A stretch of DNA of 64,000 bases from Polyangia bacterium. GTDB taxonomy: Bacteria; Myxococcota_A; Polyangia; Nannocystales; Nannocystaceae. Of this stretch, positions 5,389 through 30,749 are shown in pieces. The notes under the pieces were generated by a model, which worked only from the letters and a program-made list of their open reading frames with translations, had not been told where the DNA came from and ran no database searches. Location: contig JAUHWG010000011.1 in NCBI GenBank assembly GCA_030424595.1, positions 65,130-129,129 of the forward strand, read 5' to 3'. The position numbers and the translations under genes were made by a program. Each line of letters opens with the position of its first letter. Within the stretch, counting starts at the first letter, position 1.

Positions 5389-5404
5389 GCCACGGACGGC
5401 GGCG

Positions 5405-6547
5405 ATGCGCCTCCTCGTCCTCGACGCGTACCACGACGGATCCCACGCTGCGTTCATCCGCGGGTGGTCGGCCCGATCGCGGCACGAGCACGACCTGCTG
5501 ACCTTGCCGGGCCGTCACTGGAAGTGGCGGATGAGGCAGGGGGCGATCGGCTTCGCGGCGACGGTAGGCGAGCGCTACGCCGCGGGAGAGCGCTGGGACG
5601 CGGTCTTCGCCACCGACATGCTCGACCTGGCGACCTTCGCCGGGCTCGCGCCGGCGGCCGTGGCAGCGCTGCCGCGGATCGTCTACTTCCACGAGAATCA
5701 GCTCACCTACCCGGTCCGCCATCACGACGTCCGCGACCTCCACTTCGCCTTCACCAACATCACCACCTGCCTCGCCGCCGACGCGGTCGTCTTCAACAGC
5801 GGCTTTCACCGGGACGCCTTCTTGGCGGCCGTCGACGAGCTGACGGCGAAGATGCCGGATCACCGGCCGAGCGCGGCGGCGTCGACGATCCGGGCCCGCT
5901 CGTCGGTCGTCCCGCCGGGGATCGACCCGCCGCCGATGACAAATCCCGGGAGGCCCCGGGAGGGCGGCCCCTTGCGGGTGCTCTGGCCCCACCGCTGGGA
6001 GTACGACAAGGACCCGAAGAGCTTCTTTGAGGCGATCGGCGCGGCTCGGCGTCAGGGCGCGCAGCTCCGGCTCCTCGTCGTCGGCAAGCGCTTTCGCGAG
6101 GCGCCGCCCGCCTTCGCCGCGGCCGCGCAGGAGCACGCCGACATCATCGACCAGTGGGGCTACGTCGAGGACCACGCGGCCTACCGCCGCCTCTTGGCGG
6201 GCGCCGATGTGGTCGTCTCGACCGCGATCCACGAGTTCTTCGGCATCGCCGTCGTCGAGGCCGTCGCCGCCGGCGCCTTCCCGGTGGTCCCGCCGCGCCT
6301 CGCCTATCGGGAGACCCTGCGCGGCGCCGACGGGAGCCCGCGCTCGGAGTTCTTCTACGACGGCAGCGTCGCAGGCCTCGCCGCGCGCCTCGTCGCCTTG
6401 GCGGAGGAGCCCGCGGGGATCTGGGGCGCTGAGGGTCCGGAGGGACGGCGCGGCTCGGAGGTGGTCGCCGGCTACCTCTGGCCGGCGGTCAGCGAGCGCC
6501 TCGATCGCCAGGTTGAGCGCTCCCTCGCGGGCGCTCGCGTGCGCTGA
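5405..6547 (+). CDS. Glycosyltransferase family 1 protein with DUF3524 N-domain; homolog of eukaryotic tRNA-queuosine alpha-mannosyltransferase (GTDC1/QTMAN-like)
   Basis: Motifs [67 protein letters not shown] match the GTDC1-type family as I recall it (WPHRWEHDKDPESFF, YFHENQLIYPV). Confidence 0.75.
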
Positions 6548-10162: not shown

Positions 10163-10344
10163 TCCTTCGTCGAGCCCCGAGGAGCTGATCGCGGCGCCAG
10201 ATCGTGCCTCGGCAGGGGGACCTCTGCGAATGTCTCCAGAGGAGCCGCGGAGCTGCGGGCGAATACGGCCGAACCCGCGCGGGGTCCCGGCGCTGCTGCG
10301 AAAAGTGGCGCTCTCGGGGGCGGGGATGCGCTAGCTTTGGCAGC

Positions 10345-12069
10345 ATGCGTTCCCTTAGTTTTGGCTGTCCTGGTGTCCTCTTGGCGATGATCGGCTTGAG
10401 CGGTCTGAGCGGCCTGAGCTTGGGCGCCTGCGCCCTCGGTGGCGAAGACTCAGCCCCCACGTCGCTCTCCGCCGGCAACCAGAGCGCGAGCGCGACGGAG
10501 GGCACCGGCGGGACCGAGAGCGAGAGCGCGGGGGGGAGCACCGTCAGCACGAGCGGTCCGAGCGGCGGCAGCGAGAGCGAGACCGGTGACACGGTCGCGC
10601 CCCCCGGCTGCGGCGACGGCGTGGTCGAGGGGGACGAGGCCTGCGACGACGGGCCGAACAACGGCGCCGGCTACGGCTGGTGCGACGGCGTCTGCGGGGG
10701 CATCCGCTCGACCTCAGCGAACGCGATCTACGTCGCGACCGCGGGCAATGACAGCAACCCCGGCACCCGCGACGAGCCGATGCTGACCGTCAGCGCCGCG
10801 ATCATCAAGGCGGACGCGGTCGACGCGGACGTCTATGTCGCCAAGGGCTCCTACGACGAGCCGACGACGATCGATCTGGTCGACGGGGTCTCGGTCTTCG
10901 GCGGCTTCGACGAGACCGACGACTGGTCGCGCTCCGCCGACAACCTGACGCGGATCGAGGTGGCCGAGGCGACAGCGGTCAGCGCCCTCAACCTCGCCGG
11001 GACGACAGCGCTGACAGTGCTGACGATCGCCAGCGGTGACGGCGGGGCCGGTGAGTCCTCGATCGGCGTGTTCGGCAGCGAGAGCGACGGTCTGGTGATC
11101 GAGGCCTGCATCATCGAGGCCGGCCGCGGCGGTGACGGGGCGCCGGGCCAGGACGCCGCGGGGGCCGCGGAGAACGGCGGCGTCGGCCAGCCCGGACAAC
11201 CTGGCTGTGAAGACAGCTCAGGTCTCTGCTCGAGCTGCTCCAAGCCCCTCGGAGGGGCGGGCGGTGCGTCGAGCTGCGGGGCGCCGGGAGGGGTCGGCGG
11301 GGCTCCGGGCAACGGGCCCCAAAGCGGCAGCCCAGGCGGTCAGGGAGGTGGCGGGACTCCGGGCGGGATCGGGACCGCCTCGGCGAAGGGCGACTGGAAC
11401 CCGACCTCCGATCACTGGGGCAAGGACGGTGCGAACGGCGGGGCCGGCAGCGACGGCGGGGCTGGGGCCGCGTCCTACGCCTCGTCGGGGTATCTCGCGA
11501 CCGACGGCCAGGCCGGCGGCGACGGAGAGAACGCCAAGGGAGGCGGCGGCGGAGGGGGCGGAGGGGGCGGCGAGACCCTCTGCGACTCCTTCGGCGGAGG
11601 CGGAGGGGGCGGAGGCGGAGGGGGCTGTGGAGGCCTCGGCGGAGGCGGAGGAGGCAGCGGCGGCGGCTCCTTCGCCGTCCTCCTGTGGGGGTCCGACGCG
11701 ATCATCGAGGACTCCGAGATGTCCACCGCCGGCGGGGGCAAGGGCGGCGACGGGGGCAGCGGTCAGTCCGGGGGGAGCGGAGGCGACCCTGGGGTCGGCT
11801 CGAAGAGCGGCGCCGGCAACAATTACGGCGGCAGCGACGAGCAGGACGACGGATCCAACGGCGGTCGTGGCGGTCGTGGAGGCGACGGCGGTCGCGGAGG
11901 CGACGGCGGAGGAGGTGCCGGGGGACCCTCCGTCGGGGTTCTCTCGGCCGGGGGCTCGGCGGCGACCCTCGTCGGGCTCACCTACGCGATCGGACCGGCG
12001 GGGAAGGGCGGCGCGTCGGGGGGGGCCGCGGGCCCGAACGGCGCAGAGGCCGAGACGCTGAGCCCCTGA
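10345..12069 (+). CDS. Secreted lipoprotein with Myxococcales Cys-rich repeat, predicted right-handed beta-helix region and long Gly-rich C-terminal half
   Basis: Signal peptide plus lipobox (LSLGAC) at internal ATG 10345. CGDGVVEGDEACDDGPNNGAGYGWCDGVC matches the myxobacterial C-x-DG-x-x-E-x-CDDGN repeat. IYVATAGNDSNPGTRDEPMLTVSAA is typical of DUF1565-like beta-helix N-caps. Poly-Gly tracts follow. Confidence 0.6.
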   Translation: MRSLSFGCPGVLLAMIGLSGLSGLSLGACALGGEDSAPTSLSAGNQSASATEGTGGTESESAGGSTVSTSGPSGGSESETGDTVAPPGCGDGVVEGDEACDDGPNNGAGYGWCDGVCGGIRSTSANAIYVATAGNDSNPGTRDEPMLTVSAAIIKADAVDADVYVAKGSYDEPTTIDLVDGVSVFGGFDETDDWSRSADNLTRIEVAEATAVSALNLAGTTALTVLTIASGDGGAGESSIGVFGSESDGLVIEACIIEAGRGGDGAPGQDAAGAAENGGVGQPGQPGCEDSSGLCSSCSKPLGGAGGASSCGAPGGVGGAPGNGPQSGSPGGQGGGGTPGGIGTASAKGDWNPTSDHWGKDGANGGAGSDGGAGAASYASSGYLATDGQAGGDGENAKGGGGGGGGGGGETLCDSFGGGGGGGGGGGCGGLGGGGGGSGGGSFAVLLWGSDAIIEDSEMSTAGGGKGGDGGSGQSGGSGGDPGVGSKSGAGNNYGGSDEQDDGSNGGRGGRGGDGGRGGDGGGGAGGPSVGVLSAGGSAATLVGLTYAIGPAGKGGASGGAAGPNGAEAETLSP

Positions 12070-12104: not shown

Positions 12105-13946
12105 GTGCGCTCCGTGGGTGTCCTCTGCGGCCGTCGGCGGAGGGCCGCCTCGGCTCTACGCTCGGCCCTCCCGCGCACTCCAGAGGTGTTACTCTCGGCG
12201 GCGTTGGAGCGACGGAATCGAGCGTTGGCGGCCACAAGCAATAGCTTCCTCCAGATTCGCCGGGGCGATCAGCTCCTCCGGGTTGTCCCCCTCATCGGCA
12301 ACCGGATGGTCGCGGGTCGATCGCCCGAGGTCGAGCTGGTGCTCCAGAGCGACACCGTCTCTCGCCAACACCTCGAGCTCGTCCGCGACGAGAACGGCCG
12401 TTGGTGGGTCCGCGACCTCGCGAGTCGCAACGGAACAGCGGTCAACGGGCAGCAGATCACCGCCCACCTCCTGACCTACAGCGACGTCATCCAGATCGAG
12501 GACTACACCCTCGTCTTCGTCCGGAGCCCGAACGACGATCCGAAGGCCCGTCCTGAGCCGCGGCATGTCGCGACCCCGTCGATCCAGCTGACGATGGTCG
12601 ACAGCCCGGTCGGCCCGGTCCGCTCGCTCCGCGATCTCGGCGCGCCGAAGATCGACGCCTCGCACCTCTCTCGTCTGGTCTCCCTCAGCGCCGAGCTCCT
12701 CGCGACGGAGGAGTCCGGCGATCGCTTGGGCACCCTGTGCAGCCTGATGATCAGCCGCGACATGCGGGGGACAGCGGCGCTCGGCCTCCGGGTCGCGGTC
12801 CGCGGTGACGACGAGCCCGTGCTCCTGCGGCCGCCCTCGGTCGCCTCCGGGGGGGTCCCGCACATCTCGAGGACCGTGCTCCGGGCGGTGATCGCCCAGG
12901 GCACGCCCGTGCTCGCGTCGACGGCGGCCTCGGGCAACAAGGATCTGCTCAAGCTCTCGATCGTCGTCCAGGCGATGTCGGCGGTCGCGGTGCCGATCGG
13001 CGGCGACGGTGACCACCTCGACATCCTCTACGTCACCTTCCCGAGCAACTACGCGACCGCCGAGTGGCTCGCGCTGGCCTCCCTCGCGGGCGAGCTCTAT
13101 CGCCAGGCGGACGCGGCCTGGGTCGCACGGCAGGCCGCCCAAGACCAGGCGGTGCTGGAGGAGGAGCTCGAGCGCGCCCATGACATCCAGACCCGCCTGG
13201 TCCCCGACGACTTCCGGGTCGGCATGCTCGACATCGGCTTTGGTTTCGAGGCCTGCAAGTGGGTCGGCGGCGACTATGTCGACGCCCTGCCGCTGCACGA
13301 CGGGCGGGTCCTGATCACGGTGATGGACGTCTGCGGCAAGGGTCTGGAGGCCGCGCTCGTCGCCGCGGGGTTGCACACGACCGTCCACGTGCTCGTCCAC
13401 GAGGGCCTCGGCCTCGCGCCGCTGGTCGCGAGCCTCAACCGCTACCTCTGCGAGACCCTGCCTCCGGCCTCGTTTGTGACGATGTGCGCCCTCGTGCTCG
13501 ACCCTGAGACCGGGGCGATCGAGCACGTGAATTGCGGCCATCCGCCGCCGCTCGTCGCCGGTCGGAGCGGGACCGTCCGCGAGATCTCGATCCACGAGCA
13601 CGCCCCGCTCGGCTTCGTCGACGTCGACGAGGAGATCATCGTCACCCGCGACAACCTGCCGATGGATCACGCGCTGGTGCTCTACACCGACGGCCTCTCG
13701 GAGCTCGTCGACGAGAACGATGAGATGCTCTGCGTCGAGGGGTTGAGCACGCTCATCGGTGAGGTCGGCGCCGCGTCGCGCAACGCCTCGGCGACCGCCC
13801 TCGCCAGCTCCCTCCGCGGCGCGCTCGCGGCCTATCAGGGCACCGCGGTCGCGGCCGATGACCTCTCGTTTATCCTGGTCCTCCGGACCGCCTCGAGCGC
13901 GATGCGAACCGGCCCCCTGCGGGCCGCATCCGCGCTCACCTCCTAG
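12105..13946 (+). CDS. FHA domain / sensory (GAF-like) domain / PP2C-type (SpoIIE/RsbU-like) Ser/Thr phosphatase
   Basis: FHA core (GRSPEVELVLQSDTVSRQHLELVRDENGRWWVRDLASRNGTAVNG). C-terminal PP2C motifs (GGDYVDAL, VMDVCGKGLEAAL, YTDGLSE). The GTG start at 12105 is taken from the ORF track; the exact start is uncertain. Confidence 0.75.
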   Translation: MRSVGVLCGRRRRAASALRSALPRTPEVLLSAALERRNRALAATSNSFLQIRRGDQLLRVVPLIGNRMVAGRSPEVELVLQSDTVSRQHLELVRDENGRWWVRDLASRNGTAVNGQQITAHLLTYSDVIQIEDYTLVFVRSPNDDPKARPEPRHVATPSIQLTMVDSPVGPVRSLRDLGAPKIDASHLSRLVSLSAELLATEESGDRLGTLCSLMISRDMRGTAALGLRVAVRGDDEPVLLRPPSVASGGVPHISRTVLRAVIAQGTPVLASTAASGNKDLLKLSIVVQAMSAVAVPIGGDGDHLDILYVTFPSNYATAEWLALASLAGELYRQADAAWVARQAAQDQAVLEEELERAHDIQTRLVPDDFRVGMLDIGFGFEACKWVGGDYVDALPLHDGRVLITVMDVCGKGLEAALVAAGLHTTVHVLVHEGLGLAPLVASLNRYLCETLPPASFVTMCALVLDPETGAIEHVNCGHPPPLVAGRSGTVREISIHEHAPLGFVDVDEEIIVTRDNLPMDHALVLYTDGLSELVDENDEMLCVEGLSTLIGEVGAASRNASATALASSLRGALAAYQGTAVAADDLSFILVLRTASSAMRTGPLRAASALTS

Positions 13947-13975
13947 GGCCTGAGCCCAACGCCAAGGACTAGTCG

Positions 13976-14320
13976 ATGATCGTCGAAGACAAGGAATACA
14001 GCGTTGCCTTTGAGCAGACGGAGCAGCGTGTCCGCTTCGAGGGGCAGCTCCGGCTGCGATCGCCGCGGGACTACGGCCCGATCCTGGATCTCCTTCGCAC
14101 CGCCCACCAGTCGGGCATCGACACCCTCGTGCTCGACTTCCGCAACCTCGACATGCTCAACTCGTCGGGGATCGGGACGATGGGCGCATTCTTGGTCGAG
14201 GTCCGCAAGGCGAAGAACATGTCGATCAAGGTGCTCGGCAGCGCCGCCAAGCGCTGGCAGGGTCGGACCCTGTCGACGCTGAAGAAGATCTGGCCGCAGG
14301 TCGAGCTGATCATCGACTGA
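13976..14320 (+). CDS. STAS-domain protein (anti-sigma-factor antagonist-like)
   Basis: 114 aa. LVLDFRNLDMLNSSGIGTMGAF resembles the SpoIIAA/RsbV phospho-serine loop (DSSGLG). RBS aagga precedes the ATG. Lies 30 nt after the PP2C gene. Confidence 0.7.
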   Translation: MIVEDKEYSVAFEQTEQRVRFEGQLRLRSPRDYGPILDLLRTAHQSGIDTLVLDFRNLDMLNSSGIGTMGAFLVEVRKAKNMSIKVLGSAAKRWQGRTLSTLKKIWPQVELIID

Positions 14321-14546
14321 TCGACGATCGCCCCTCTCCGGCCGAGGGGCGCGCTCCGGACTCAAGGGGGGTCGACACCCTGGCTCGTCCGATGGACCGG
14401 CGATGACGCGAGCCCACGTGGACCTGAGAAGGTGGCTCGGCCGGTGAGCCAGCGCCCGCCGGCGAGGGGCGAGTCCTCGTCGACAGCCCCTCTGGGCGGG
14501 CTTGTGAGGCCGTCCCAGGCCGGCGCCGATCTCAGGGGGATGCGGG

Positions 14547-17500
14547 TCAGGCGACGGCGAGGCCGATGCTGCGGCGAGCCTCGAAGTAGGCCTCGCTGAC
14601 GCTGTAGATGATCAGCTCGGTGAGCGCGTCCTTGCCGGTGATGTTGACCGCGCTCGATCGCTGCTCGCTGCGGATCGCCTTGGCGGCCGCGTCGAGGTCG
14701 TTGCAGAGGAGCAGGCCGAGGCGGTATCCGGCGATCGCCGAGGCCCTCGCCCAGCGCTTGACGTCGGTCTGACCGAGGAGCTTCGCCTGCTCCTTGACCT
14801 TCGCCTGGGTGGTCGGCTGCATCCGCTTCGCGAGCTCGGTCGCGACGACGCCGACCCCCTGGGCGCTGTCGGCCCCCGGCTCGCCGAGGAGCGAGCAGGC
14901 GACCAGGAGCTGCTTGAGGTTCTGCGGCGAGAGCTCGAGGAGGAAGAAGGCGTGGTGCGGCGGATAGAGGTCGAGGAGCGAGCGGGCCATCTCGAAGACG
15001 ACCTCACCGTCGCTGCGATCGTTGCGGAGGATCCCGCCGCGGGCGACGACGACCCGCGAGAGATCGTCGCCGCGCTTGCGGACGCTGTGCAGCGAGAGCT
15101 CCCCGTTCTCGGCGTTGAGACAGTGGAGCTCAGGCTCGGGGACGCCGATCGTCCGGGCGATGTAGCTGAGCGCCTGGGCGACGAGCGTGACGCTCTCGCC
15201 GGTGTCGACGGGCTCACTGCCGCGGAGGAAGGGCGGCAGGGGCTTCGAGCGCCAGGCCGCGAGCGCCGGCATCACCAGGCCGAGGATGGTCGAGACCGTC
15301 GGATCCTGATCGCCGGGGAGAACGGTCCGCCGCAGGGTGTCTTCGCTGAGGCGCAGGCGGGCCTGGCGGAAGACCGAGGGCGGGCCGCTGCGGTAGAAGG
15401 TCGTCTCCTCCTCGGTCGCCTGTTTGAGGAAGAGCAGGGTCCTGGCCAGGCAGTAGGCCTTGTCCACCTCGTTTTGCTGGCGGTAGATGTTGTAGAGCTG
15501 GTGATAGCTGTTGTAGTGCGCGGGGTTGAGGCGGATGAGCGTGCTGTGGCAGCGGATGAGCGCGTCGGTGTACTGCGCTGGGTCCTGCTGGGTGAGCACG
15601 CCGTAGAGCTCGGTCAGCATCACCTGCCGTTGGAAGTTGCTGGGATCGAGGCTGAGCGCGACCTCCAGGGCCTTCGCGGCCGAGCTGAAGTTGCCGACCC
15701 GCGAGCGGTAGATCTCGGCGAGGTTGTGCCACAGCAGCTGCTTGAGCGGTGAGGTGTCCTCCGCCGGCAGGCGCTTGATCATCTTCCGGTAGGCACGCTC
15801 GAGCGCCTTCCAGTCCTTGCGCTTGGTCAGCAGGGTGTCGATCGCCTGGAACGCCTTGAGGAAGCTGGGGTCGTCGTCGAGGACGAGGTCGAAGCGCTCG
15901 AGCGCGGCGTCGACGTCCTTGTTCTGATCGCGCTCGATCGCCGCCGAGGTGTAGAGGTACTTCGCCCTGCGGCTGGGGTCGTCTTCGCCGACGATGAGCT
16001 GATCGAGGATCGGCAGGACGTCGCTCCAGCGCTTGGCCTCGGTGTGGAGGTCGAGGATCGTGTGGAGGACGGTCTTGTCCGTCGGCCTCAGCTCATGCGC
16101 CCGCTGGAAGGCCGAGGCGGCTCGCTGGGGATCCTTGAGCCGGTCGCGGAAGAGCTTGCCTATCTCGCCGAACGCCTCGGCCTTGGCGGCGTCATCCTTG
16201 AGCGTCGGCAGGCGGGTCTGGTGGGCCTTCAGGAGCCCGGCCCAGTCGCGGTTGTCGGTGTAGATCTCGATCAGGCTCTCGTGGGCGAGCTGCGAGGTCG
16301 GCGTGCAGCTCAGGGCCTTCTTGTACTGCTCGATCGCCAGGTCGCTCCGGCCCTGGGCTACCGCGATCTCTCCGAGCTTGATGTGGACAGCCGCCTTGGC
16401 GTCGCCTTCACGGCGGCCGAGGAGCTGCTCGTAGGCCATCCGCGCCTCGTCCCAGGACTTGCGGATCATCGCGATCTCGGCGCAGCCGACCAGGGCGTGG
16501 CTGCTCTCGGGATCGATCGTCAGCGCGCGCTTGAAGAGCTTGTGCGCCTTGGTCGTGCTGCCGACCGCGCGCGCGACCTGGGCGGCGCGGACCAGCACGC
16601 CGACCTTGCTGGTGTCGCGCAGCCCGAGGTTGTCGAGCTTGCGGACGAGGGCGTCGAAGATCGGCGCGGCGGCGACGTAGTTCTTCTGCTCGTAGTAGAT
16701 CTTGCCGAGGATCGGCCCGACCTTGGCGTTCTCCGGGTCGAGCTCGACGACCTTGGAGAACATCTGCATCGCCCGGTCCTTGACCTGGAGCTTGTCGAGC
16801 CAGACGAACCCGGCCTCGGCAGCCCGCTCGATCTTCTCGTAGCTGCTGGTCGTGTTCTCGACGATCGACTCGAGCACCTCGACGAGCTCGATCCACTCGT
16901 GGCGCGCCCGGAAGAGCTCCGCGAGGAGCTTCAGCGCGGGCAGGTGGGTCGGGACGAGCTCCGTCGCCTGATAGAGCCGGACGATCGCGGCCTCGGTCTC
17001 GGAGAGCTTGTGGTGGAGAAGATCGCCGATATGGGCGAGCTGGTCGGCGCAGCGCGTAGCGTCGGTGCACAGCTCGACGAAGCGCTCGTAGTGGGGGATG
17101 GCCTGCTCGAACTCCTGCTTGCGCTCGAGGGCCTGGGCGAGCCCTAGGTGGGCCTCGAGGGAGTCCTCGTCGGCGACCAGGAGCTCGCGGAAGATCTCCG
17201 CGGCCTTGTCGAAGTTGAGGATGTTCTTGAGGTAGAGCTCCGCGAGGGCGCCCTTGAGCTTGAGCTTGGCGTCGTCATCCGAGGTGAGCTCTGTGCGCCT
17301 GAGGTAGACCGCCTCGAGGTCACGCCAGCGCTGGTTCTCCAGGTGGCGCTGGCCGAGCTGGAAGTAGGCGTAGTCGCGGGCCTGGTTTATCCACTCCGAC
17401 CAGCGCAGGTAGTCGGGGGAGTCCTTGGTCTCGCCGGCCATCGCCGTCAGGGCCCGCTCCATCTTGTCCAGGATCGACAGCTGCTCCTCGGGGCCAGGCG

Positions 17501-18518
17501 CCGCGCCGAGCATCGATTGAAGGCCCTCGATCGAGTAGAAGACCGCAGAGTCGCGGGTCGGTTGGTTGGCGAGCGGACCGCTGAGCCCGGCCGTCGCTCC
17601 CTCGCTCCGGTCGTCCGCCAGCGGTGAGCGTCTTCGCGGCGCCTTGCCGTCGTCGCTGATCTCGCGCAGGGCCTGCTCGAGCGCCGACAGATCGGCGAAG
17701 CGGTCGACCGGATCTTTGGCGAGGCTGCGGAGGATCACAAGCTCGACAGGCGCCGGGATGTCCGCGTCGGGGGCGATGTTTCGCGGCGGAGGCGGCGAGG
17801 CCATCGCGTGCTGCGTGACCACCTGGTGGGGCTCCTGCGCTGTGAAGGGGACAGAGCCGGTGAGGAGACTGTAGAGGAGGATGCCGACCGAGTAGACGTC
17901 GGTGCGAGCGTCCTCCTTGCCGACTTGGGCCTGCTCCGGGGCGGAGTACTCCGCGACCTCGAGGAGCTCCGGTCCGCTGAAGATGTCGATCCGCGACGCG
18001 GGCGTGAGGCCGGGGTTGAGCAGCTTGACGTGGTCGAGATCATCGCCCGCGTCGACCATGAAGACGTTCGCGGGGCGGACCCCGCCGTGGACGAGGCCCT
18101 TGCCGTGGATGACCCGGAGGGCGCCGATGACCTGGAGGATGAGCCCCTTCACCCGCGGCCAGGCGAAGCGCTTGGCGCCGCTGCGGAGCTGGCCCAGGTC
18201 GGCGCCGACGAGGTGTTCGCGGATCAGGTAGACGCCGCCGTCCGCGGTCTTGCCGTAGCTCAAGAGGCGCGCGAGGTTGGCGTGGCGGAGGAGCGAATGG
18301 ATCCGGGCCTCGCGGAGAACCGTCGAGGCAAAGTCACCGCTCGAGGCGAGGCCAGGATCGATGATCGTCGCGACGACCTTCTTGCGCAGCGTGGTCTGCT
18401 CGGCGAGGTAGACCTCGCCCGCATCACCCGGCCCGAGGTGCTCGATGAGCGTGTACTTCTTCGCGACGACGGTGCCGACCTGCGGGGCACCTCCAACAAC
18501 GGACGATGGATCGTTCAT
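14547..18518 (-). CDS. Ser/Thr protein kinase fused to ~1000 aa of TPR repeats
   Basis: Hanks kinase motifs (VAKKYTLIEHLGPGDAGEVYLA; HGGVRPANVFM; catalytic/activation segments) from ATG at 18518. The remainder is tetratricopeptide-like repeats (ALxxYxxAL patterns). Confidence 0.8.
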   Translation of the reverse strand: MNDPSSVVGGAPQVGTVVAKKYTLIEHLGPGDAGEVYLAEQTTLRKKVVATIIDPGLASSGDFASTVLREARIHSLLRHANLARLLSYGKTADGGVYLIREHLVGADLGQLRSGAKRFAWPRVKGLILQVIGALRVIHGKGLVHGGVRPANVFMVDAGDDLDHVKLLNPGLTPASRIDIFSGPELLEVAEYSAPEQAQVGKEDARTDVYSVGILLYSLLTGSVPFTAQEPHQVVTQHAMASPPPPRNIAPDADIPAPVELVILRSLAKDPVDRFADLSALEQALREISDDGKAPRRRSPLADDRSEGATAGLSGPLANQPTRDSAVFYSIEGLQSMLGAAPGPEEQLSILDKMERALTAMAGETKDSPDYLRWSEWINQARDYAYFQLGQRHLENQRWRDLEAVYLRRTELTSDDDAKLKLKGALAELYLKNILNFDKAAEIFRELLVADEDSLEAHLGLAQALERKQEFEQAIPHYERFVELCTDATRCADQLAHIGDLLHHKLSETEAAIVRLYQATELVPTHLPALKLLAELFRARHEWIELVEVLESIVENTTSSYEKIERAAEAGFVWLDKLQVKDRAMQMFSKVVELDPENAKVGPILGKIYYEQKNYVAAAPIFDALVRKLDNLGLRDTSKVGVLVRAAQVARAVGSTTKAHKLFKRALTIDPESSHALVGCAEIAMIRKSWDEARMAYEQLLGRREGDAKAAVHIKLGEIAVAQGRSDLAIEQYKKALSCTPTSQLAHESLIEIYTDNRDWAGLLKAHQTRLPTLKDDAAKAEAFGEIGKLFRDRLKDPQRAASAFQRAHELRPTDKTVLHTILDLHTEAKRWSDVLPILDQLIVGEDDPSRRAKYLYTSAAIERDQNKDVDAALERFDLVLDDDPSFLKAFQAIDTLLTKRKDWKALERAYRKMIKRLPAEDTSPLKQLLWHNLAEIYRSRVGNFSSAAKALEVALSLDPSNFQRQVMLTELYGVLTQQDPAQYTDALIRCHSTLIRLNPAHYNSYHQLYNIYRQQNEVDKAYCLARTLLFLKQATEEETTFYRSGPPSVFRQARLRLSEDTLRRTVLPGDQDPTVSTILGLVMPALAAWRSKPLPPFLRGSEPVDTGESVTLVAQALSYIARTIGVPEPELHCLNAENGELSLHSVRKRGDDLSRVVVARGGILRNDRSDGEVVFEMARSLLDLYPPHHAFFLLELSPQNLKQLLVACSLLGEPGADSAQGVGVVATELAKRMQPTTQAKVKEQAKLLGQTDVKRWARASAIAGYRLGLLLCNDLDAAAKAIRSEQRSSAVNITGKDALTELIIYSVSEAYFEARRSIGLAVA

Positions 18519-18702
18519 AGCTAGCCAGAGGAACGATAGCCGATGTCGACGTGCGAAGGCGCGGGGGAGGCCGCTCGCACTTGCTTGCAGGTGCATCCGA
18601 TCGGGCGAGAGGTGCGGCCTGGGCGAGTTCGCGCGTCAACCTGGCCTTGGGGACCTCTTCGCTCGAGGCCCATGAGCGGGGGCGCGCGAACTCGCCCGCG
18701 CC

Positions 18703-19866
18703 CTAGTAGGCGACGCCGATCTCCGCCGCCTGGTCGCGGAGCATGTCGACGACCTTGTTGTCGAAACCGTCCGCCGGGGCGTTGTCCTCGATGTAGGCGT
18801 CGCGCTTCTTCGAGAGATCGAGGATCTGCTCGTTCAGCGTCGATCGCTTGGCGCGGAGGCCCTCAACATAGGCGCGCTGCTCTGTGTCGCTCATCGACTG
18901 CATCGCCTCGGGGAGGGCTGCGTTGTCGACCCGATCGAGGTCGACCCGACCCTCCTCGATCGCCGTGACCAGATCCTCCTCGACGAAGTACGCGTTCTTC
19001 GCCGAGTAGGAGGCGGCGGACGCCGCTGCCTGCCCCGAGAGCTTGGCGCGAGAGCTGCTCTTTCGGCGAGCGTTGGCCTTGTCGGTCGCGCTGCCCCAGC
19101 CGACCGACGAGGTCGCGAGCGCGCGGTTGAGGGCGGCGAGATCGTCGTCAAAGGGGGAGGCGATCGTCTGAACCCCGCCGTCCTGCTCGATCGTCGTCAT
19201 CTGGCCCCCCGCGAGCGAGGCGATCGTCCGCCATGCAGCTTCGGTGTCGGACATCTGACCGCAACGGATCGTGTTGATCGTGATGTTCTTGGCTGCGGCT
19301 GTGCGGGCGAGCTCGGCGCTGGTCGGGCCGTCGTTGTAGTCGTCGTGGGGCGGAGCGTCGCCGACGAGGAAGACGAGGCGGAGCACGCCCTGGCCCTCCT
19401 CCCAGGACATCCCGTGGATGGCGTCGGAGAGGCCGCGGTTGACGTGCTCGGGACCGTCCCCGCCGCCTGCGGCGATGAGCTGCGAGAGCTGGCCGTGGAT
19501 CGTGTCGAGGTCGCGGGTCAGCGGGAAGCTCTTGGTCACGTACTCGTCGGTGATGTCACGGTAGGCGACGAGGCCGACGCGGATGTCGGGGCGGGGCTCA
19601 CCCGAGGAGAGGCGGTTCGCGATCGACCAGATCGTCTGCTTCGCCCCTTCGAGGAGGCCGCTCATCGAACCGGTGGTGTCGACGACGAAGACCACGTCGA
19701 TGCGGGGGCGCTGGACGTGCCGGGCTTGGCTGGCGACCTGCACAGGCGCTTCGGCGGCGAGCTCAGCCTGAGGCTGTGGGATCGGCCAGATCGAGTTGGC
19801 GATCAGCGTCCCGCACATGAGGGAGGTGAGGGCGGCGCCGATGTAGATCATGTGGGAGGTACGCAT
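18703..19866 (-). CDS. Secreted/anchored von Willebrand factor type A (vWA) domain protein
   Basis: N-terminal hydrophobic signal/anchor (MRTSHMIYIGAALTSLMCGTLIANS). MIDAS motif DVVFVVDTTGSMS. Start at internal ATG 19866. Confidence 0.75.
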   Translation of the reverse strand: MRTSHMIYIGAALTSLMCGTLIANSIWPIPQPQAELAAEAPVQVASQARHVQRPRIDVVFVVDTTGSMSGLLEGAKQTIWSIANRLSSGEPRPDIRVGLVAYRDITDEYVTKSFPLTRDLDTIHGQLSQLIAAGGGDGPEHVNRGLSDAIHGMSWEEGQGVLRLVFLVGDAPPHDDYNDGPTSAELARTAAAKNITINTIRCGQMSDTEAAWRTIASLAGGQMTTIEQDGGVQTIASPFDDDLAALNRALATSSVGWGSATDKANARRKSSSRAKLSGQAAASAASYSAKNAYFVEEDLVTAIEEGRVDLDRVDNAALPEAMQSMSDTEQRAYVEGLRAKRSTLNEQILDLSKKRDAYIEDNAPADGFDNKVVDMLRDQAAEIGVAY

Positions 19867-20319
19867 GCTTGTCTTCCTGTTCTCGGTGGGTCCGGGTGTG
19901 AACGCAGGATCCACCCATTCGGCGCCTCTGGCCTGTAAAACACCCGTAAAACGCTCGCAAAAGGGCTCATACACCTCTTCTACGAACACTGTCGGGGGAG
20001 CGCCTGACCGTCATGATGACGTTGTCTGCGGCTGAGCAGGGAGGACGGGGCCTGATCGCCGCCCGAAGAGCAGACCTGCTCGTCACCGGGCGGGCGCTCG
20101 AGGGGCAGGAGCGATCATCCCGGGAGGGGCTGCGAGCGCTCTCCCGGGCCAGGCGCTCGGCGATCCTCGACGAGGACAGGCTCGGTCAGGTCGCGCGGCG
20201 CGTCGAACCTCGCCAAGGGGGCCGATCGCGGCGTGAGGGCGCACTGGACACCAGCGGCCTCGGCCCGTGCGCCCGCCCTTGAACGGCAGTTCTTTGGGAC
20301 AGGTCGCGCGGAGCGCAGA

Positions 20320-22488
<2,169 letters not shown>

Positions 22489-22590
22489 GCGGTCCAGATA
22501 GTCTCATGGGAGCGACCGGTCCGCATCACTCCCCTCCGCGGAGGTCTTGAAACGCGTCAGGCGCGTGCCGCGGCCGGCCCCGGCGAGGGG

Positions 22591-23157
22591 TCACGATGGC
22601 TGATCGCGAGGCCCTTGTGGCTGTGTCGCCCCGAGCTGGTTGCCGAACTTGTCGACGCAGCGCGCGAGGATCGCGTTGGCGCGGCCCCGGGCGATCTCTC
22701 GTGAGGCGTTCGCAAAGGCGTGCGCTTGGCAACGCGCGACCTGGATGTTCTTGCGATCGATGCACTCGTCCTCGGCCTTGTCGAGGTCCATCGGCTTGAA
22801 GACGCTCCAGCGCTCGAGCTCCGCCGGGTCACCTGCGATCCGGCGCTGGACGAAACCATCGTAGGCGTCGCGCATCTCCAGGCAGGTGGCCTTAAGGTCA
22901 CCTAAAGGAGGCGTGTCCGGGACGATCGTCACCGCGTCGATGGCCTCGCGAATCGCGGCCTCGGCCTTGGCGGCGGTCCGCTCCTTGAGGCGCTTCATGT
23001 CCTCCGACGCTTGCTTCGCCGCAGCTTTGGGATCGCTCTGCTCAAACGCCTTGGCGATGTTGTTGTGTTGCTCGGCGCTCTCGGTGCAGGCGAGGGGCGC
23101 TGCACAGGTGAGTGCGAGCAGGAGGGATCCAAGGGACGGTTGACGAAGTGTGTGCAT
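22591..23157 (-). CDS. Hypothetical lipoprotein (helical, K/A/E-rich)
   Basis: Signal peptide plus lipobox (LLLALTCAAPLAC) from internal ATG (MHTLRQ...). Confidence 0.5.
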   Translation of the reverse strand: MHTLRQPSLGSLLLALTCAAPLACTESAEQHNNIAKAFEQSDPKAAAKQASEDMKRLKERTAAKAEAAIREAIDAVTIVPDTPPLGDLKATCLEMRDAYDGFVQRRIAGDPAELERWSVFKPMDLDKAEDECIDRKNIQVARCQAHAFANASREIARGRANAILARCVDKFGNQLGATQPQGPRDQPS

Positions 23158-23578
23158 ACGAAGACCTCCGTGTCGGGCGAATGCGCTCACTCGGTATGCC
23201 ATGGGGCGACTTCGAACGACAAGGCCCTCGGTCCACAGAGGCATGCATCCGTTCGCGGGCCTCCAGGGGGCTCCGCGGCCTTGTGCCCTCTGTGGGAGAC
23301 GCCGCGAGGGGAGGGCGGGGCCGTCCTGATCGGCCTGACTTGCTCGTCGCCTCGACCATCGAAAGAAGGTCGGCGCGTCGGGCTCCAGACCCTCTCCGAG
23401 CGAGGTCCCAGGAGCGAGCCTGCGCGCCCCCTAGGGGGTCGTCTCCGCGAGACGAGCGCCTGCGGACGCTCGAATAAATCGCTGGCGATCGTGGGGCCAG
23501 CCGTCCAGGATAGTCGAACGGCCTGCGGGAGTAGCAGGCGGCGGAGACGGGAAGAGGCGCCGAGGTCGGGATAGGGCG

Positions 23579-26539
23579 ATGGATCTGACGATACTTGCGA
23601 GAGAGCGCGTAGGAAAGGTCCTGCGCGGCAAGTACCACTTGGATCGACTCATCGACGTCGGCGGGATGGCTGCCGTCTACGAGGCGACCCATCGCAATGG
23701 CACGCGCTCGGCGATCAAGGTCCTTCATCCGAAGTATGTCTCGGATGTTCAAGCTCGGACCCGCTTCCTCCGCGAGGGCTACGCGGCCAACCACGTCGGC
23801 CATCCCGGGTCGGTGACCGTCATCGACGACGACTTCACCGAGGAGGGCGACGTCTATCTCGTGATGGAGCTCCTCGACGGCGAGTCGCTCGAGGGGTGCA
23901 TCGCCCGCGAGAAGACGATGAACGAGGTCGACGTCCTCAGCATCGCCGATCAGCTGCTCGACGTCCTCTCGTCGGCGCACAACAAGGACATCATCCACCG
24001 GGACATCAAGCCGGCGAACATCATGCTGACGCGCAGCGGCATCGTGAAGCTGCTGGACTTCGGCCTCGCCCGTGTCCGCGAGCTGCCCGCGGTCGCGGGG
24101 GTTCACAGCGCTGAGATCGTCTTCGGCACGGTCGCCTATGTCTCGCCGGAGGCGGCCCGCGCCAACAACGATGAGATGGACGGTCGCGCCGACCTCTGGG
24201 CGGTCGCGGCGACGATGTTCAAGGCGCTCGCCGGCGAGACCGTGCACGGGATGAACGGATCGGTGATGGAGCGCTTGATCCGGGCCGCCAAGGATCAGGC
24301 GCGGTCCCTCGGAGCGATCGCGCCGCATCTCCACCCGCGGGTTGTCGATCTCGTCGACCGGGCGCTGATGTTCAACCGCGAGGATCGCTGGCCGAGCGCG
24401 GCGGTGATGCAGGCGGTCACCCAGGACGTCCTCGCCCAGCTGATGGAGGAGCGGGCCGTCCCGCCGTCGATGTTCTTCATGCCTGGCCTCTCGCAGATGG
24501 TCGCGGGATACGCCGCGTCGGGGCCGATGACGTCGATGTCCGCGTCATACTCGCCGACGCCTAGGCCCTTTCGCGGACAGATGGCGACGCCGTCGCCGAG
24601 CCCGTATCCGTACCCTGGGGCGATGGCGACGCCGACGCCGCGGCCCGCCCCCAACCCGCTCAATCAGGTCTCGCACAACCCGCTCAACCAGGTCCGCGGC
24701 CGTGCGGCGCAGCCATCGTACCCGGACCAGGGGAGCGCCGGATACACGACCAACTACGCGAACCCGTTGAATCAGGTCGCGTCGCGCCCGAGGTCGGCGC
24801 CGCAGGTCCAGCCGCAGCGACAAAACCCGCTCAACCGCGTCGCGGCGCCCTCCCACAGCCATCAGCGGTCGCCTGGGGAGCCCCAGAACCAGGCCCCGAC
24901 GAGCTATCCTCAGAGACAGACGATCCAGACCCGGGGCTACGGTGCGGTCGATCCCGGGGACTCGTCGTTCGACATCGAGATCGAGGATCTCGATCCAGGG
25001 TCGAGCGCCGGTGATCTCGATCTCGCGATCACGATCGAGGAGAGCCGCGAGGCGCCCGCTCCCCGGCCCCGCCGGGCGACGACGATGCGCGACCTGGGAT
25101 CAGCAGCGGCGCGAGCGCGGGCGATGCTCGACTCCCGACGTCGCGGAGTGATGGCGCCGACGCCAGCGCCGACGCCAGCGCCAGCGCCAGCGCCAGCGCC
25201 AGAGCCCGAGCCGGAGCTCGAGGAGGACTCAGACTTCGACATCGACATCGGCTTCGAGGACGACTTTACCGACGTCGACGATCACTCTGTCCCTGAGGAC
25301 GTGGTGGTCGACACCGGCGGCGACGCGGTCGAGGTGGACACGGTCCGTCGTCCTCCGCCGACGCTTCCGAGCGAAGAGACCGTTCGTCGTCCGGCGCCCA
25401 CGGGGCCGTCGTTCGAGGCGAAGGGGAGGAGCGAGGATACGGTCCGCGGGCCCGCACCGCTCCCCGAGAGCTTCCGGCAGGGGGATAGCCACAGCGGCAT
25501 GGAGCCGGGGATCATCATCGAGCAGCTCGACGACGATGAGGGCTGGCCAGAGGATGACCCCTGGGGCACTGGGGCCGTCTCCGGGGAGATATCGGACGAG
25601 AGTCGGGTGTACGACGAGGTCGACGAGGCCGACGAGGACGACGACGTCGAAGCTGCCCATGTCGAGGATGCTGGCGCTGTCGATGAGGCGGAGCCGACCC
25701 CAGACCTGACCGACGGGCCACGGCTCCCGGCCACGCCAGAGTCGTCGGTCAGCGGCCTCCTGGGTCTACCTCCGCTCAGCTCGGGACTCTCCGGCGCCCG
25801 CACGTTTGGTGCCCCGCTCTCGCGAGCGGACGCCGAGGCGAAGCGAGAGGCGGCCGAGGCGAAGCGGCAGGCCGCGGAGGCTGAGCGCAAGGCTGTTCTC
25901 GCCGAGCGCCGAGCGGCGGCGGCGGAGGAGCGCAAGGCGGCGGCGGAGCAGCGCAGGTTGCAGGCCCGTCAGGCGGCGGAGCTTCGCGAGCAGGAGCGGC
26001 TCAAGCGGAGGAGTGGGAAACCACTGCCGCCGCGTCCGAAGGGCGGTGGTCTCGGCCTCGAGCGTCTCTCTTCGCTCCGGCGCCCCCCCGAGGCGCCGGT
26101 CGTCGTCGATCGGGACTCACCGACCTTGACCTCCCCCGATCGTACGGTGCGGGTCGCCATCCCGACGCCGACGACCCTCCCGGATCTCGGCGTCGGTCAG
26201 CGTTCATCGCGAGCTCCCGCGGTCCCGAGGGTCAGCCCGCCGCGGGTGCAGGTGCCGGCGCCGCCGAAGGAGGCCGACGAGAGCGAGGAGGTCGCGGAGC
26301 TCAGCGACAGCATGTTCGTCCGTGTCCCGGAGGCCAACAAGCCCGCTCCGGTGGTGCCGCCGAAGGTGCCGGCTCCGCCGGCGAGGACGCCGGTGCCGCC
26401 GGTCGTCGGCTCCTCTCCGCGACGACCGAGCAAGCTACCTGCTCGTCCGCCAGCGAAGAAGCCCGAGGGGAAGCCTACGGGGGACAAGCCGGCGCTCCGC
26501 TTGCCGCGGCTGCGGAAGCTCCCGCCGCGCAAGAAGTAG
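23579..26539 (+). CDS. Ser/Thr protein kinase with long disordered Pro-rich, acidic and coiled-coil C-terminal region
   Basis: Kinase subdomains present: GGMAAVYEA, HRDIKPANIML, DFGLA, APE. C-terminal NPLNQV repeats, poly-(AP) tract, acidic DE-rich block, a coiled coil (AEAKREAAEAKRQAAEAERKA...) and a basic P-rich tail. Confidence 0.8.
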   Translation: MDLTILARERVGKVLRGKYHLDRLIDVGGMAAVYEATHRNGTRSAIKVLHPKYVSDVQARTRFLREGYAANHVGHPGSVTVIDDDFTEEGDVYLVMELLDGESLEGCIAREKTMNEVDVLSIADQLLDVLSSAHNKDIIHRDIKPANIMLTRSGIVKLLDFGLARVRELPAVAGVHSAEIVFGTVAYVSPEAARANNDEMDGRADLWAVAATMFKALAGETVHGMNGSVMERLIRAAKDQARSLGAIAPHLHPRVVDLVDRALMFNREDRWPSAAVMQAVTQDVLAQLMEERAVPPSMFFMPGLSQMVAGYAASGPMTSMSASYSPTPRPFRGQMATPSPSPYPYPGAMATPTPRPAPNPLNQVSHNPLNQVRGRAAQPSYPDQGSAGYTTNYANPLNQVASRPRSAPQVQPQRQNPLNRVAAPSHSHQRSPGEPQNQAPTSYPQRQTIQTRGYGAVDPGDSSFDIEIEDLDPGSSAGDLDLAITIEESREAPAPRPRRATTMRDLGSAAARARAMLDSRRRGVMAPTPAPTPAPAPAPAPEPEPELEEDSDFDIDIGFEDDFTDVDDHSVPEDVVVDTGGDAVEVDTVRRPPPTLPSEETVRRPAPTGPSFEAKGRSEDTVRGPAPLPESFRQGDSHSGMEPGIIIEQLDDDEGWPEDDPWGTGAVSGEISDESRVYDEVDEADEDDDVEAAHVEDAGAVDEAEPTPDLTDGPRLPATPESSVSGLLGLPPLSSGLSGARTFGAPLSRADAEAKREAAEAKRQAAEAERKAVLAERRAAAAEERKAAAEQRRLQARQAAELREQERLKRRSGKPLPPRPKGGGLGLERLSSLRRPPEAPVVVDRDSPTLTSPDRTVRVAIPTPTTLPDLGVGQRSSRAPAVPRVSPPRVQVPAPPKEADESEEVAELSDSMFVRVPEANKPAPVVPPKVPAPPARTPVPPVVGSSPRRPSKLPARPPAKKPEGKPTGDKPALRLPRLRKLPPRKK

Positions 26540-30199: not shown

Positions 30200-30607
30200 C
30201 CGTCCGGCGCGGAGTACTCACGAGTTGAGAGGACCCGCACGACGGGGGAGCGGTCCACGGTGAGCGCCTGAATTCAGCTCAGATGTGGTTCCTTGTCCCC
30301 GATGACGGGTCGTGTGTGGGGATCCTCCACGATACGCAAGAGTAGCCAAGGCGAGGCGTGGGAGCTATCGTTGTGGGGCTAGAGCCTCGACGGCGCAGCG
30401 ATCTTCCTCCCCATTTTCGATCGCGACCTACCTCCCCACCGCCGTCGAGGTTCTGGCAATTTTTTTGCGCCGGTGTCGGTCTCGATCTGGGGGACTGACG
30501 AGCGGCTCCGCGGTGTGCAGGGGACGTCTTCGCCGACCCTGGGTCGAGGTCGCGCGGCGGGTTCGCGGTCGCGACACGTAGATGTCTACGCGCTCGTCGT
30601 CCAGGTT

Positions 30608-30629
30608 TACATGTCTTCACGGACATGTA
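30608..30629. promoter_or_regulatory. Perfect 8-bp-arm palindrome tacatgtc-N6-gacatgta in the 550-bp leader upstream of the vault-protein homolog
   Basis: Direct reading. Located ~120 bp upstream of the ATG at 30750 in a locally lower-GC stretch. Confidence 0.3.
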
Positions 30630-30749
30630 TTCGAAGCGGCGGAGGGCGGGTCGGGATCGCTGCGGTCCGAAGCCGCGCCTGGCCTGGACGATAGCCGCCG
30701 CTGCGCCGGACACCTATGCTTGTGCCGCGTATTGACGAGAGGAAGCAGG

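Follow-up and report, generated by a model that had tools for sequence, protein, structure and literature searches.

The genes of the locus

We analysed a stretch of 64,000 nucleotides (the 64-kb window from here on) from a Polyangia bacterium of the Nannocystaceae, contig JAUHWG010000011.1, and focused on a locus at 10.2-26.5 kb that encodes two proteins with kinase folds, a phosphatase with an FHA domain, a STAS protein and a vWA protein. The GC content of the window is around 70% and the closest matches to its proteins come from metagenome-assembled genomes (MAGs) of Nannocystaceae. An earlier note on this DNA had listed seven genes here, and our open reading frame (ORF) and domain analysis recovered all seven with the same coordinates, order and orientation. 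Three of them are the main subject of this work. On the plus strand, a protein made of an FHA domain, a middle domain of ~240 aa and a SpoIIE-type PP2C phosphatase (12105-13946, from Pfam) is followed by a STAS protein of 114 aa of the slr1659/SiaC type (13976-14320, NCBIfam NF047705). Convergent to them, on the minus strand, lies the gene of a cytoplasmic protein with matches to the Pkinase and TPR families of Pfam (14547-18596; 1323 aa from the ATG at 18518), which ends in a C-terminal domain (CTD).

A predicted pseudokinase with TPRs and a CTD of no known family

The earlier note had described the 1323-aa protein as a giant kinase-TPR protein. The Pkinase match is clear (5.4e-25) and many TPR families match as well. 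The protein can be divided into a kinase-like domain (~17694-18455, from Pfam and alignment), a TPR region (~15456-17270, from Pfam) and a CTD of ~310 aa (14550-15476, delimited by conservation among the loci that have it), all of them on the minus strand. We aligned the kinase-like domain to PknB and to the canonical kinase encoded nearby. In the window protein HRD has become HGG, the Lys of the catalytic loop is R and DFG has become NPG. Four further orthologs have HGG plus AFG or GFG, and the Asp residues of HRD and DFG, the catalytic and the Mg-binding one, are gone in all five proteins. The beta3 Lys is missing in two of the five (the window and the L012 locus) and kept in the other three.

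The 1323-aa protein is therefore predicted to be a catalytically dead pseudokinase, unable to phosphorylate in the canonical way, and, if dead, it cannot be the kinase of the pathway. Furthermore, no transmembrane segment is predicted in it, so it has no means to receive a periplasmic signal. On both counts the role that it had been given is not supported.

No AAA_16 match was found in this protein. Regarding the CTD, neither Pfam nor NCBIfam nor the PDB gave any sequence match, including a profile search of the PDB and Pfam scans of 38 members, and the AlphaFold2 model obtained from an alignment of five sequences was unusable (pLDDT 42.5).

The TPR-CTD protein and its convergent FHA enzyme in Nannocystineae

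A word-indexed search with the CTD only found just four proteins and missed the L001 ortholog, which is 65% identical. For this reason we used a pattern scan of genome contigs, taking one genome per species, and found 52 CTD loci, all of them in Nannocystineae or in related MAGs. Four loci are close relatives of the window (group A) and the other 48 form group B, which includes Nannocystis, Enhygromyxa, Plesiocystis and Paraliomyxa. In group B the ORF is a TPR giant of more than 3,600 aa that runs off the fetched locus, and its C-terminal ~1,000 aa align with residues ~356-1349 of the window protein at 36-42% identity. No kinase domain was found in these giants within the 10 kb fetched upstream. 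There are no vWA, STAS, PP2C or slr1658 genes in the group-B loci (slr1658 is the usual partner of this STAS family, see below).

The gene facing the TPR-CTD gene is what the two groups have in common. In group B it encodes an FHA-GAF-class III cyclase protein, which is convergent to the giant in 34 of the 37 loci having at least 3 kb of downstream sequence and lies within 1.7 kb of it in 26. In group A an FHA-enzyme gene is convergent to the TPR-CTD gene in every locus with downstream sequence, the enzyme being the PP2C. The presence of the STAS gene tracks the PP2C version exactly and it never accompanies the cyclase version. The scan found no assembly with both locus types, and there is no FHA-GAF-cyclase in the 64-kb window. 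Thus, FHA-PP2C and STAS occupy the position that is held by the FHA-GAF-cyclase in most genera.

As far as gene order and domain content can tell, the conserved core is the TPR-CTD scaffold with its convergent FHA enzyme. The tie between the TPR protein and an FHA enzyme that the earlier note had seen in a single locus is thus borne out in 34 of 37 Nannocystineae loci. The clustering that it proposed for the whole island goes beyond chance for the pseudokinase-TPR-CTD protein, the FHA enzyme and the STAS protein, and is not demonstrable for the vWA protein, the Q/P-rich protein, the lipoprotein and the second kinase described below.

The group-B loci belong to a larger arrangement that, apparently, has not been described: the giant TPR-CTD protein, the FHA-GAF-cyclase and a methyltransferase-like coiled-coil protein form a conserved trio (L013-L060, e.g. 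L027 1-16283).

The FHA-PP2C phosphatase

The FHA domain (~12279-12518, Pfam 3.3e-17) keeps the phosphothreonine-binding motifs GR, SxxH and NG, and the PP2C domain (~13299-13880, Pfam SpoIIE 2.6e-35) keeps the Asp motifs GGDYVD, DVCGKG, YTDGLSE and DDLSF. The phosphatase is predicted to be active and the FHA domain to be functional. The middle domain has no Pfam match even at E=10. A GAF domain, as in the cyclase version, was considered and rejected, and we leave this domain unassigned: hhalign against the group-B GAF gave E=0.05 with a probability of 1%, and BLASTP against the FHA-GAF-cyclase aligned the FHA domain only. Orthologs of FHA-PP2C are found in the equivalent position in L009, L011, L012, L068 and L069.

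In a public gene call this protein has 535 aa (L148 1364-2971) and begins at Val79, within the FHA domain (12105-12339 in the window). The called start is probably too late, because the alignments of the orthologs reach upstream to residue ~19-45.

The stop codon of FHA-PP2C is located 30 bp before the STAS gene. On the other side, 35 bp upstream and co-directional, there is a gene that the earlier note had left outside its coordinates, encoding a Gly-rich predicted lipoprotein (10204-12069, plus strand, from ORF and sequence; lipobox SLGAC). It belongs to no Pfam family, is syntenic in L009, L011 and L012, and may be co-transcribed with the phosphatase and STAS genes.

The STAS protein and the slr1658/slr1659 cassette

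The STAS protein scores 110 bits against NF047705, the slr1659 superfamily (cut-off 100). It stays under the STAS threshold of Pfam, and its spore_II_AA match only reaches E=0.0085. Its AlphaFold2 model has a pLDDT of 97.6 and the best PDB matches are SiaC (TM-score 0.67-0.74), then RsbV and SpoIIAA. The fold agrees with the STAS assignment of the earlier note, and by its score the protein belongs to the slr1659 superfamily. The candidate phosphorylated Ser lies in LNSSGIG (aa 61-67, nt 14156-14176), at the N-terminus of helix 2 (helix 63-79), and in the 79 family members aligned N62 and S63 of LNSSGI are invariant. An exhaustive search gave only 350 clusters at 50% identity; in a separate profile search the top-scoring named matches were mostly cyanobacterial. 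The literature on slr1659 is essentially nil, the sole phenotype being for slr1658, in the recovery from iron limitation.

In order to know the usual company of this family, we counted neighbours in 77 metagenome loci outside group A, for which a narrower STAS alignment was used in the scan. In 63 of 68 loci the STAS gene directly follows an slr1658-like gene, whose family is weakly similar to the SiaB kinases. Of 45 family loci, 39 have a PP2C no more than 6 kb away. GGDEF or cyclase genes are frequent and not obligatory (17 of 45), and a Hanks kinase domain is near in 10 of 45, five of which have it in one ORF with the PP2C. The SiaC/STAS fold, the invariant Ser and the PP2C in 39 of 45 loci agree with the view of the earlier note that FHA-PP2C and STAS are a pair of the partner-switch type.

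The slr1658 kinase is what is missing here. A tblastn search and a custom HMM (hidden Markov model) on all ORFs of at least 60 aa found no slr1658/SiaB-like kinase in the 64-kb window. Group-A loci, including three further metagenome ones, also have no slr1658, and their order is FHA-PP2C and then STAS. Among the genes scanned, which cover most of the window, there is no GHKL kinase or HATPase_c match, no sigma factor and no nucleotide-cyclase output (GGDEF or class III).

The nearest STAS relatives outside the clade (L063, L071 and P0127) are 47-55% identical and are extra, second copies of the STAS gene. These second copies (L063 945-2118, L071 8575-10077, P0127) are fused or adjacent to a domain of ~270 aa (272 aa) and lie beside a complete PP2C/slr1658/slr1659 cassette; the copy of that domain which was scanned, L063 1300-2118, has no NCBIfam match. 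In Kamptonema and Oscillatoria (L061 1-7634, L067 1949-9398) a Pkinase-AAA_16-TPR-GAF-SpoIIE protein of ~1,770 aa is followed by slr1658, slr1659 and GGDEF genes. This is a SiaABCD-like cassette in which the phosphatase is fused to a CP1-type kinase.

The second kinase and the other neighbours

At the other end of the locus, on the plus strand and divergent from the minus-strand series, there is a canonical Hanks Ser/Thr kinase (23579-26539). Its kinase domain (~23633-24412, Pkinase 9.5e-37) keeps AIK, HRDIKPAN and DFG, that is, all three catalytic features, and it is predicted to be active. No transmembrane segment is predicted. We regard it as the nearest candidate for the enzyme that would write the phosphate. 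Its long disordered tail carries four NPLNQ/R repeats (24653-24838), and the NPLNQ motif, searched in six frames, is confined in the window to this kinase and to the Q/P-rich protein, which has it three times (five with the SPLNQ variants) in its cytoplasmic part, encoded on the minus strand. The kinase orthologs of L009 and L001 have retained the repeats, and L009 has copies just upstream of the Q/P ORF. A motif common to both proteins hints at a shared docking partner.

Upstream of the pseudokinase gene the minus strand carries three more genes. The nearest encodes the vWA protein (18703-19989, probable start MRTSH at 19866), with matches to Pfam VWA_4 and VWA and a MIDAS-like DTTGS at 19680; TssR_VWA scored 24.2, under its cut-off of 25.7. 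Next is a Q/P-rich bitopic membrane protein (20320-22488) with one transmembrane segment (20935-20991), RRR just before it, an N-terminal low-complexity region with HPFAQQ and NPLNQ repeats (NPLNQ at ~21391-21501), and a C-terminal domain of ~90 aa (20323-20595) that is 86-91% identical in L009 and L010. The last is a small secreted protein or possible lipoprotein (22591-23244, probable start M30). Its N-terminus is signal-like, but the lipobox is not canonical for the lipoprotein that the earlier note had named. No family matches were found for it in Pfam or NCBIfam, and its orthologs in L009 and L012 are ~59% identical. Successive genes on the minus strand are separated by 102 bp, 330-453 bp and 106-184 bp, and start and stop codons never overlap; the co-direction and the short gaps that had been pointed out are therefore as measured, none above ~450 bp. 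A promoter and terminator scan of the locus gave no more sites than shuffled sequence and did not clarify the transcription units.

The vWA family is large, with more than 2,264 homologs of ~390 aa. An N-terminal hydrophobic segment is present in 115 of 120 members, which agrees with the secretion proposed earlier and makes it reasonable to consider the family as exported or membrane-anchored. We examined four contexts of vWA homologs outside the clade (45-54% identity), and none has a pseudokinase-TPR-CTD, PP2C or FHA gene nearby. In Nannocystis exedens the vWA gene is next to cyclase, OmpA and BON genes, ~1 Mb from the TPR-CTD gene on one contig. In L005, a MAG of Schekmanbacteria, the vWA gene is accompanied by Dus and an oxidoreductase gene, and two genes off lies an unrelated Pkinase-AAA_16-TPR gene. 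In L065 the neighbours are NQR and aromatic amino-acid genes, and in L066 transposase and MMPL genes. A TPR gene lies within two genes of the vWA gene in three of these four contexts (L005 455-4054, L065 5402-6835, L066 8286-9068), with no detectable similarity to the TPRs or the CTD of the window protein. The proximity may be a coincidence or a loose vWA-TPR theme; we took it as a coincidence, which is not proven, since the TPR regions are unlike that of the window protein.

The whole arrangement recurs in L001/L012, L009, L010 and L011 at 58-89% amino acid identity, with two extra genes between the small secreted protein and the Q/P gene in L001/L012. The unrelated flanks, with the Gly-rich lipoprotein at one end and PhoD at the opposite end, are syntenic too, and because close relatives keep these flanks also, the synteny of the island is uninformative: it is ordinary conservation of gene order among close relatives. 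The synteny check suggested in the earlier note thus finds the whole island in close relatives, and beyond them only the pairing of the scaffold with an FHA enzyme. The link of the vWA protein to the locus comes solely from this synteny. We consider the products of these three minus-strand genes (vWA, Q/P-rich and small secreted protein) as lineage-specific neighbours of uncertain relevance, whose place in the pathway is not established.

The rest of the window, in which most genes were scanned, is housekeeping: RsgA, epimerases, PhoD, MsrA, radical-SAM enzymes, RNase PH, PrmA and an SdhA-like protein. No signs of mobile elements were seen among the genes scanned in the flanks. Two other genes are worth recording. 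One encodes a bacterial homolog of the Major Vault Protein (889 aa, 30582-33251, plus strand), with the MVP shoulder domain (6.5e-28) and Vault_3 repeat domains. The other is a glycosyltransferase gene (5366-6547, plus strand) with the N-terminal domain of tRNA-queuosine alpha-mannosyltransferases (QTMAN_N, 8e-60), which adjoins two genes of NAD-dependent epimerases/dehydratases.

A proposed mechanism and its alternatives

The explanation that we favour, and to which, taken as a whole, we give about an even chance, is the following. The locus would be a two-part cytoplasmic signalling unit, formed by a PP2C-STAS operon and a convergent pseudokinase-TPR-CTD scaffold, the CTD being lineage-specific. 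The operon would derive from the widespread PP2C/slr1658/slr1659 cassette and lack its dedicated kinase, and the pseudokinase protein would be a short form of the giant TPR scaffold of Nannocystineae.

Such a unit could work as follows. An active Hanks kinase, the nearest candidate being the one at 23579-26539, would phosphorylate a Thr of the scaffold, or of some protein docked there. The FHA domain would read the phosphothreonine and bring the PP2C to the scaffold; the PP2C would dephosphorylate Ser63/64 of the STAS protein, and the unphosphorylated STAS protein would move to a binding partner, possibly the scaffold itself. As for the kinase acting on the STAS protein, it could be of the Hanks type, or of the slr1658 type with its gene in another part of the genome. 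The former would not be unprecedented, because PknD of Mycobacterium tuberculosis phosphorylates a homolog of anti-anti-sigma factors. Precedents for other steps are the pseudokinase MviN, which recruits the FHA protein FhaA once phosphorylated by PknB (PMC12599244), and SiaABCD, in which unphosphorylated SiaC binds and activates its target SiaD (PMC7647112, PMC8457831).

We also put forward, more tentatively and as a possibility only, a wider proposal. The TPR-CTD scaffold and the FHA-gated enzyme may be an undescribed signalling system of Nannocystineae, in which phosphothreonine on a giant TPR platform with a novel domain of 310 aa controls the output enzyme. One uncultured clade may have rewired it from second-messenger synthesis by the class III cyclase to protein phosphorylation through PP2C plus a SiaC-type STAS protein, the platform gaining a dead Hanks domain and a Hanks kinase replacing the slr1658/SiaB kinase. 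Such a system would naturally combine Ser/Thr signalling of the eukaryote-like kind with a partner switch.

Several observations weigh against the explanation that we favour. The genome could have an slr1658 kinase gene beyond the 64-kb window, and the closest STAS relatives outside the clade (L063 and L071) adjoin a complete cassette. All five pseudokinases keep alphaC Glu and the greater part of the Gly-rich loop, and three keep the beta3 Lys, so that nucleotide binding or some atypical catalysis is still conceivable. Between the PP2C version and the cyclase version the FHA domains are only ~34% identical, and the middle domains are not detectably homologous; therefore the equivalence of both enzymes is positional and not a proven orthology. 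The group-B loci share a third gene, divergent and encoding the methyltransferase-like coiled-coil protein of ~1,000 aa, which is absent in the window, and for this reason part of the conservation in group B may be inherited synteny. The incompleteness of MAGs weakens the argument that both locus types never occur together. Finally, each mechanistic step is inferred, although the rewiring is testable.

The earlier note had suggested an extracytoplasmic vWA ligand sensor that feeds a partner switch. Spelt out as one pathway of all seven genes, the vWA protein would signal to the kinase-TPR protein, which would drive the phosphorylation of the STAS protein, and FHA-PP2C would reset it. The four co-directional minus-strand genes with gaps of at most 450 bp fit this model, as do the arrangement kept in L001/L012, L009, L010 and L011, the bitopic Q/P protein that could bridge periplasm and cytoplasm, the NPLNQ motif that this protein shares with the active kinase and with nothing else in the window, and the existence of vWA/STPK (Ser/Thr protein kinase)/FHA/PP2C operons such as Deinococcus DRA0331-0334. 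However, its kinase lacks the catalytic and the Mg-binding Asp in all orthologs and has no transmembrane segment. Its sensor, at 45-54% identity, is found in contexts without pseudokinase-TPR-CTD, PP2C or FHA genes, where the only kinase gene is the unrelated Pkinase-AAA_16-TPR one of L005, and in N. exedens it is ~1 Mb from the TPR-CTD gene. The synteny is limited to close relatives in which the PhoD and Gly-rich flanks are syntenic as well, and in L001/L012 two unrelated genes separate the lipoprotein from the Q/P gene. We consider this model unlikely. The vWA protein as an extracytoplasmic sensor, although the most eye-catching part of the earlier note, is unsupported.

A simple juxtaposition deserves more attention and we give it a modest probability. 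Here only PP2C-STAS would be a unit, with its kinase and target elsewhere, and the other genes would be independent neighbours in a kinase-rich genome; Myxococcus xanthus, for instance, has 99 STPKs, 11 of them pseudokinases (PMC6791715). This agrees with the uninformative synteny of the island, with the habit of this STAS family to partner an slr1658 kinase, which may be encoded elsewhere, and with the absence of promoter or terminator signals delimiting transcription units. Nevertheless, it does not account for the convergence of an FHA enzyme to the TPR-CTD gene in 34 of 37 group-B loci and in all group-A loci with downstream sequence, despite the change of enzyme and insertions of 1-6 kb. 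FHA genes are rare in any genome, so a repeat by chance is unlikely (~1% by our own estimate), and the STAS gene follows the PP2C version exactly.

We also weighed a role in anti-phage defence or conflict, with a system of vWA/kinase type like the vWA-centred NTP-dependent conflict systems or the PD-T4-6 and Mad6 kinases. Both kinase-fold proteins match the PD-T4-6 and mad6 models of PADLOC, and vWA-centred conflict systems are described in multicellular bacteria (PMC7159879). However, these matches are confined to the generic kinase domain. PADLOC gives no match for the vWA, PP2C or STAS proteins and only a marginal, low-complexity PD-T4-6 match for the Q/P protein (E ~1e-3). No effector such as an NTPase or a nuclease is present, the flanks consist of housekeeping genes without signs of mobile elements, and the core has a fixed chromosomal position across the suborder. 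We therefore rejected this reading as highly improbable.

Comparison with known systems

Operons with vWA, STPK, FHA and PP2C domains, such as Deinococcus DRA0331-0334 and the TerY-P triads, resemble the locus: all four domain types are found here in a span of 15 kb, and the PP2C has its own FHA domain, like DRA0334. The statement of the earlier note that no such operon had been worked out is dated, since a 2026 preprint dissects DRA0331-0334. In the window, however, there is no single operon, and the PP2C gene belongs to a convergent unit on the other strand. The kinase fold adjacent to the vWA gene is dead, while the active kinase is divergent and ~3.6 kb away from that gene. The exported vWA protein comes from a family that has no conserved link to PP2C or FHA, with one unrelated kinase gene in four contexts. 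The locus also differs from the threonine-phosphorylation pathway of type VI secretion systems (T6SS; PpkA-vWA/PppA/Fha), because the vWA protein is separate and no T6SS families were found among the genes scanned, and from the RsbU/RsbV/RsbW and SpoIIE/SpoIIAA/SpoIIAB switches, because the genes scanned include no RsbW/SpoIIAB-type kinase and no sigma factor.

In the CP1 family the kinase domain is physically linked to a COG3899/AAA_16 ATPase domain (PMC12599244). The CP1-type giants of Oscillatoriales bring together a kinase fold, TPRs, PP2C and an slr1659 STAS protein, as the window does. In those giants the domains form one polypeptide with AAA_16 and apparently intact HxD and DFG, accompanied by slr1658 and GGDEF genes, whereas the window splits the parts over two convergent genes and lacks AAA_16 and slr1658, and its kinase fold is dead. 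Thus, the locus is not a vWA operon of the Deinococcus or TerY-P kind, nor a T6SS pathway, a sigma-factor switch or a CP1 pseudokinase.

MviN/PknB/FhaA of M. tuberculosis is similar in joining a Hanks-type pseudokinase and an FHA protein, which here are conserved neighbours. It differs in that the window locus has no MviN flippase or membrane domain and its FHA domain is fused to a phosphatase. If a Hanks kinase writes the phosphate of the STAS protein, the locus would also give a new role to a bacterial pseudokinase, a class of proteins for which hardly any function has been defined by experiment.

Regarding the group-B pair of TPR giant and FHA-GAF-cyclase, residues ~356-1349 of the window protein align with the C-terminus of the giant and both have a convergent FHA-led enzyme. 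In the window the pseudokinase domain replaces more than 2,600 aa of N-terminal TPRs, the PP2C replaces the cyclase, STAS is added and the methyltransferase-like coiled-coil protein is absent. What is new here is this uncharacterised, suborder-wide pair of giant TPR-CTD and FHA-GAF-cyclase, together with a domain of 310 aa that belongs to no family.

Partner switches (RsbV/RsbW, SpoIIAA/SpoIIAB, SiaB/SiaC) normally encode a STAS protein, a GHKL-type kinase and a PP2C together. SiaABCD of Pseudomonas aeruginosa and the cyanobacterial slr1658-slr1659 cassette are closest to our locus: the window STAS protein is in the slr1659 superfamily, its model is nearest to SiaC, its gene comes directly after a SpoIIE-type PP2C, and the conserved Ser is at the N-terminus of helix 2. 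The differences are the lack of an slr1658/SiaB gene in the window and in group A (63 of 68 other loci have it), the lack of a GGDEF or cyclase output near the STAS gene, the N-terminal FHA domain of the PP2C, where others have SBP (L063) or kinase-AAA_16-TPR-GAF (Oscillatoriales), and the pseudokinase-TPR scaffold as convergent neighbour. Therefore the clade keeps STAS and PP2C without the kinase, set against a dead Hanks/TPR scaffold and with an FHA reader on the phosphatase. Judging from these likenesses, the locus would work most like a SiaA/SiaC (RsbU/RsbV-type) switch minus its dedicated kinase, and, if a Hanks kinase writes the phosphate on the STAS protein, it would be a natural cross-wiring of the two main Ser/Thr systems of bacteria.

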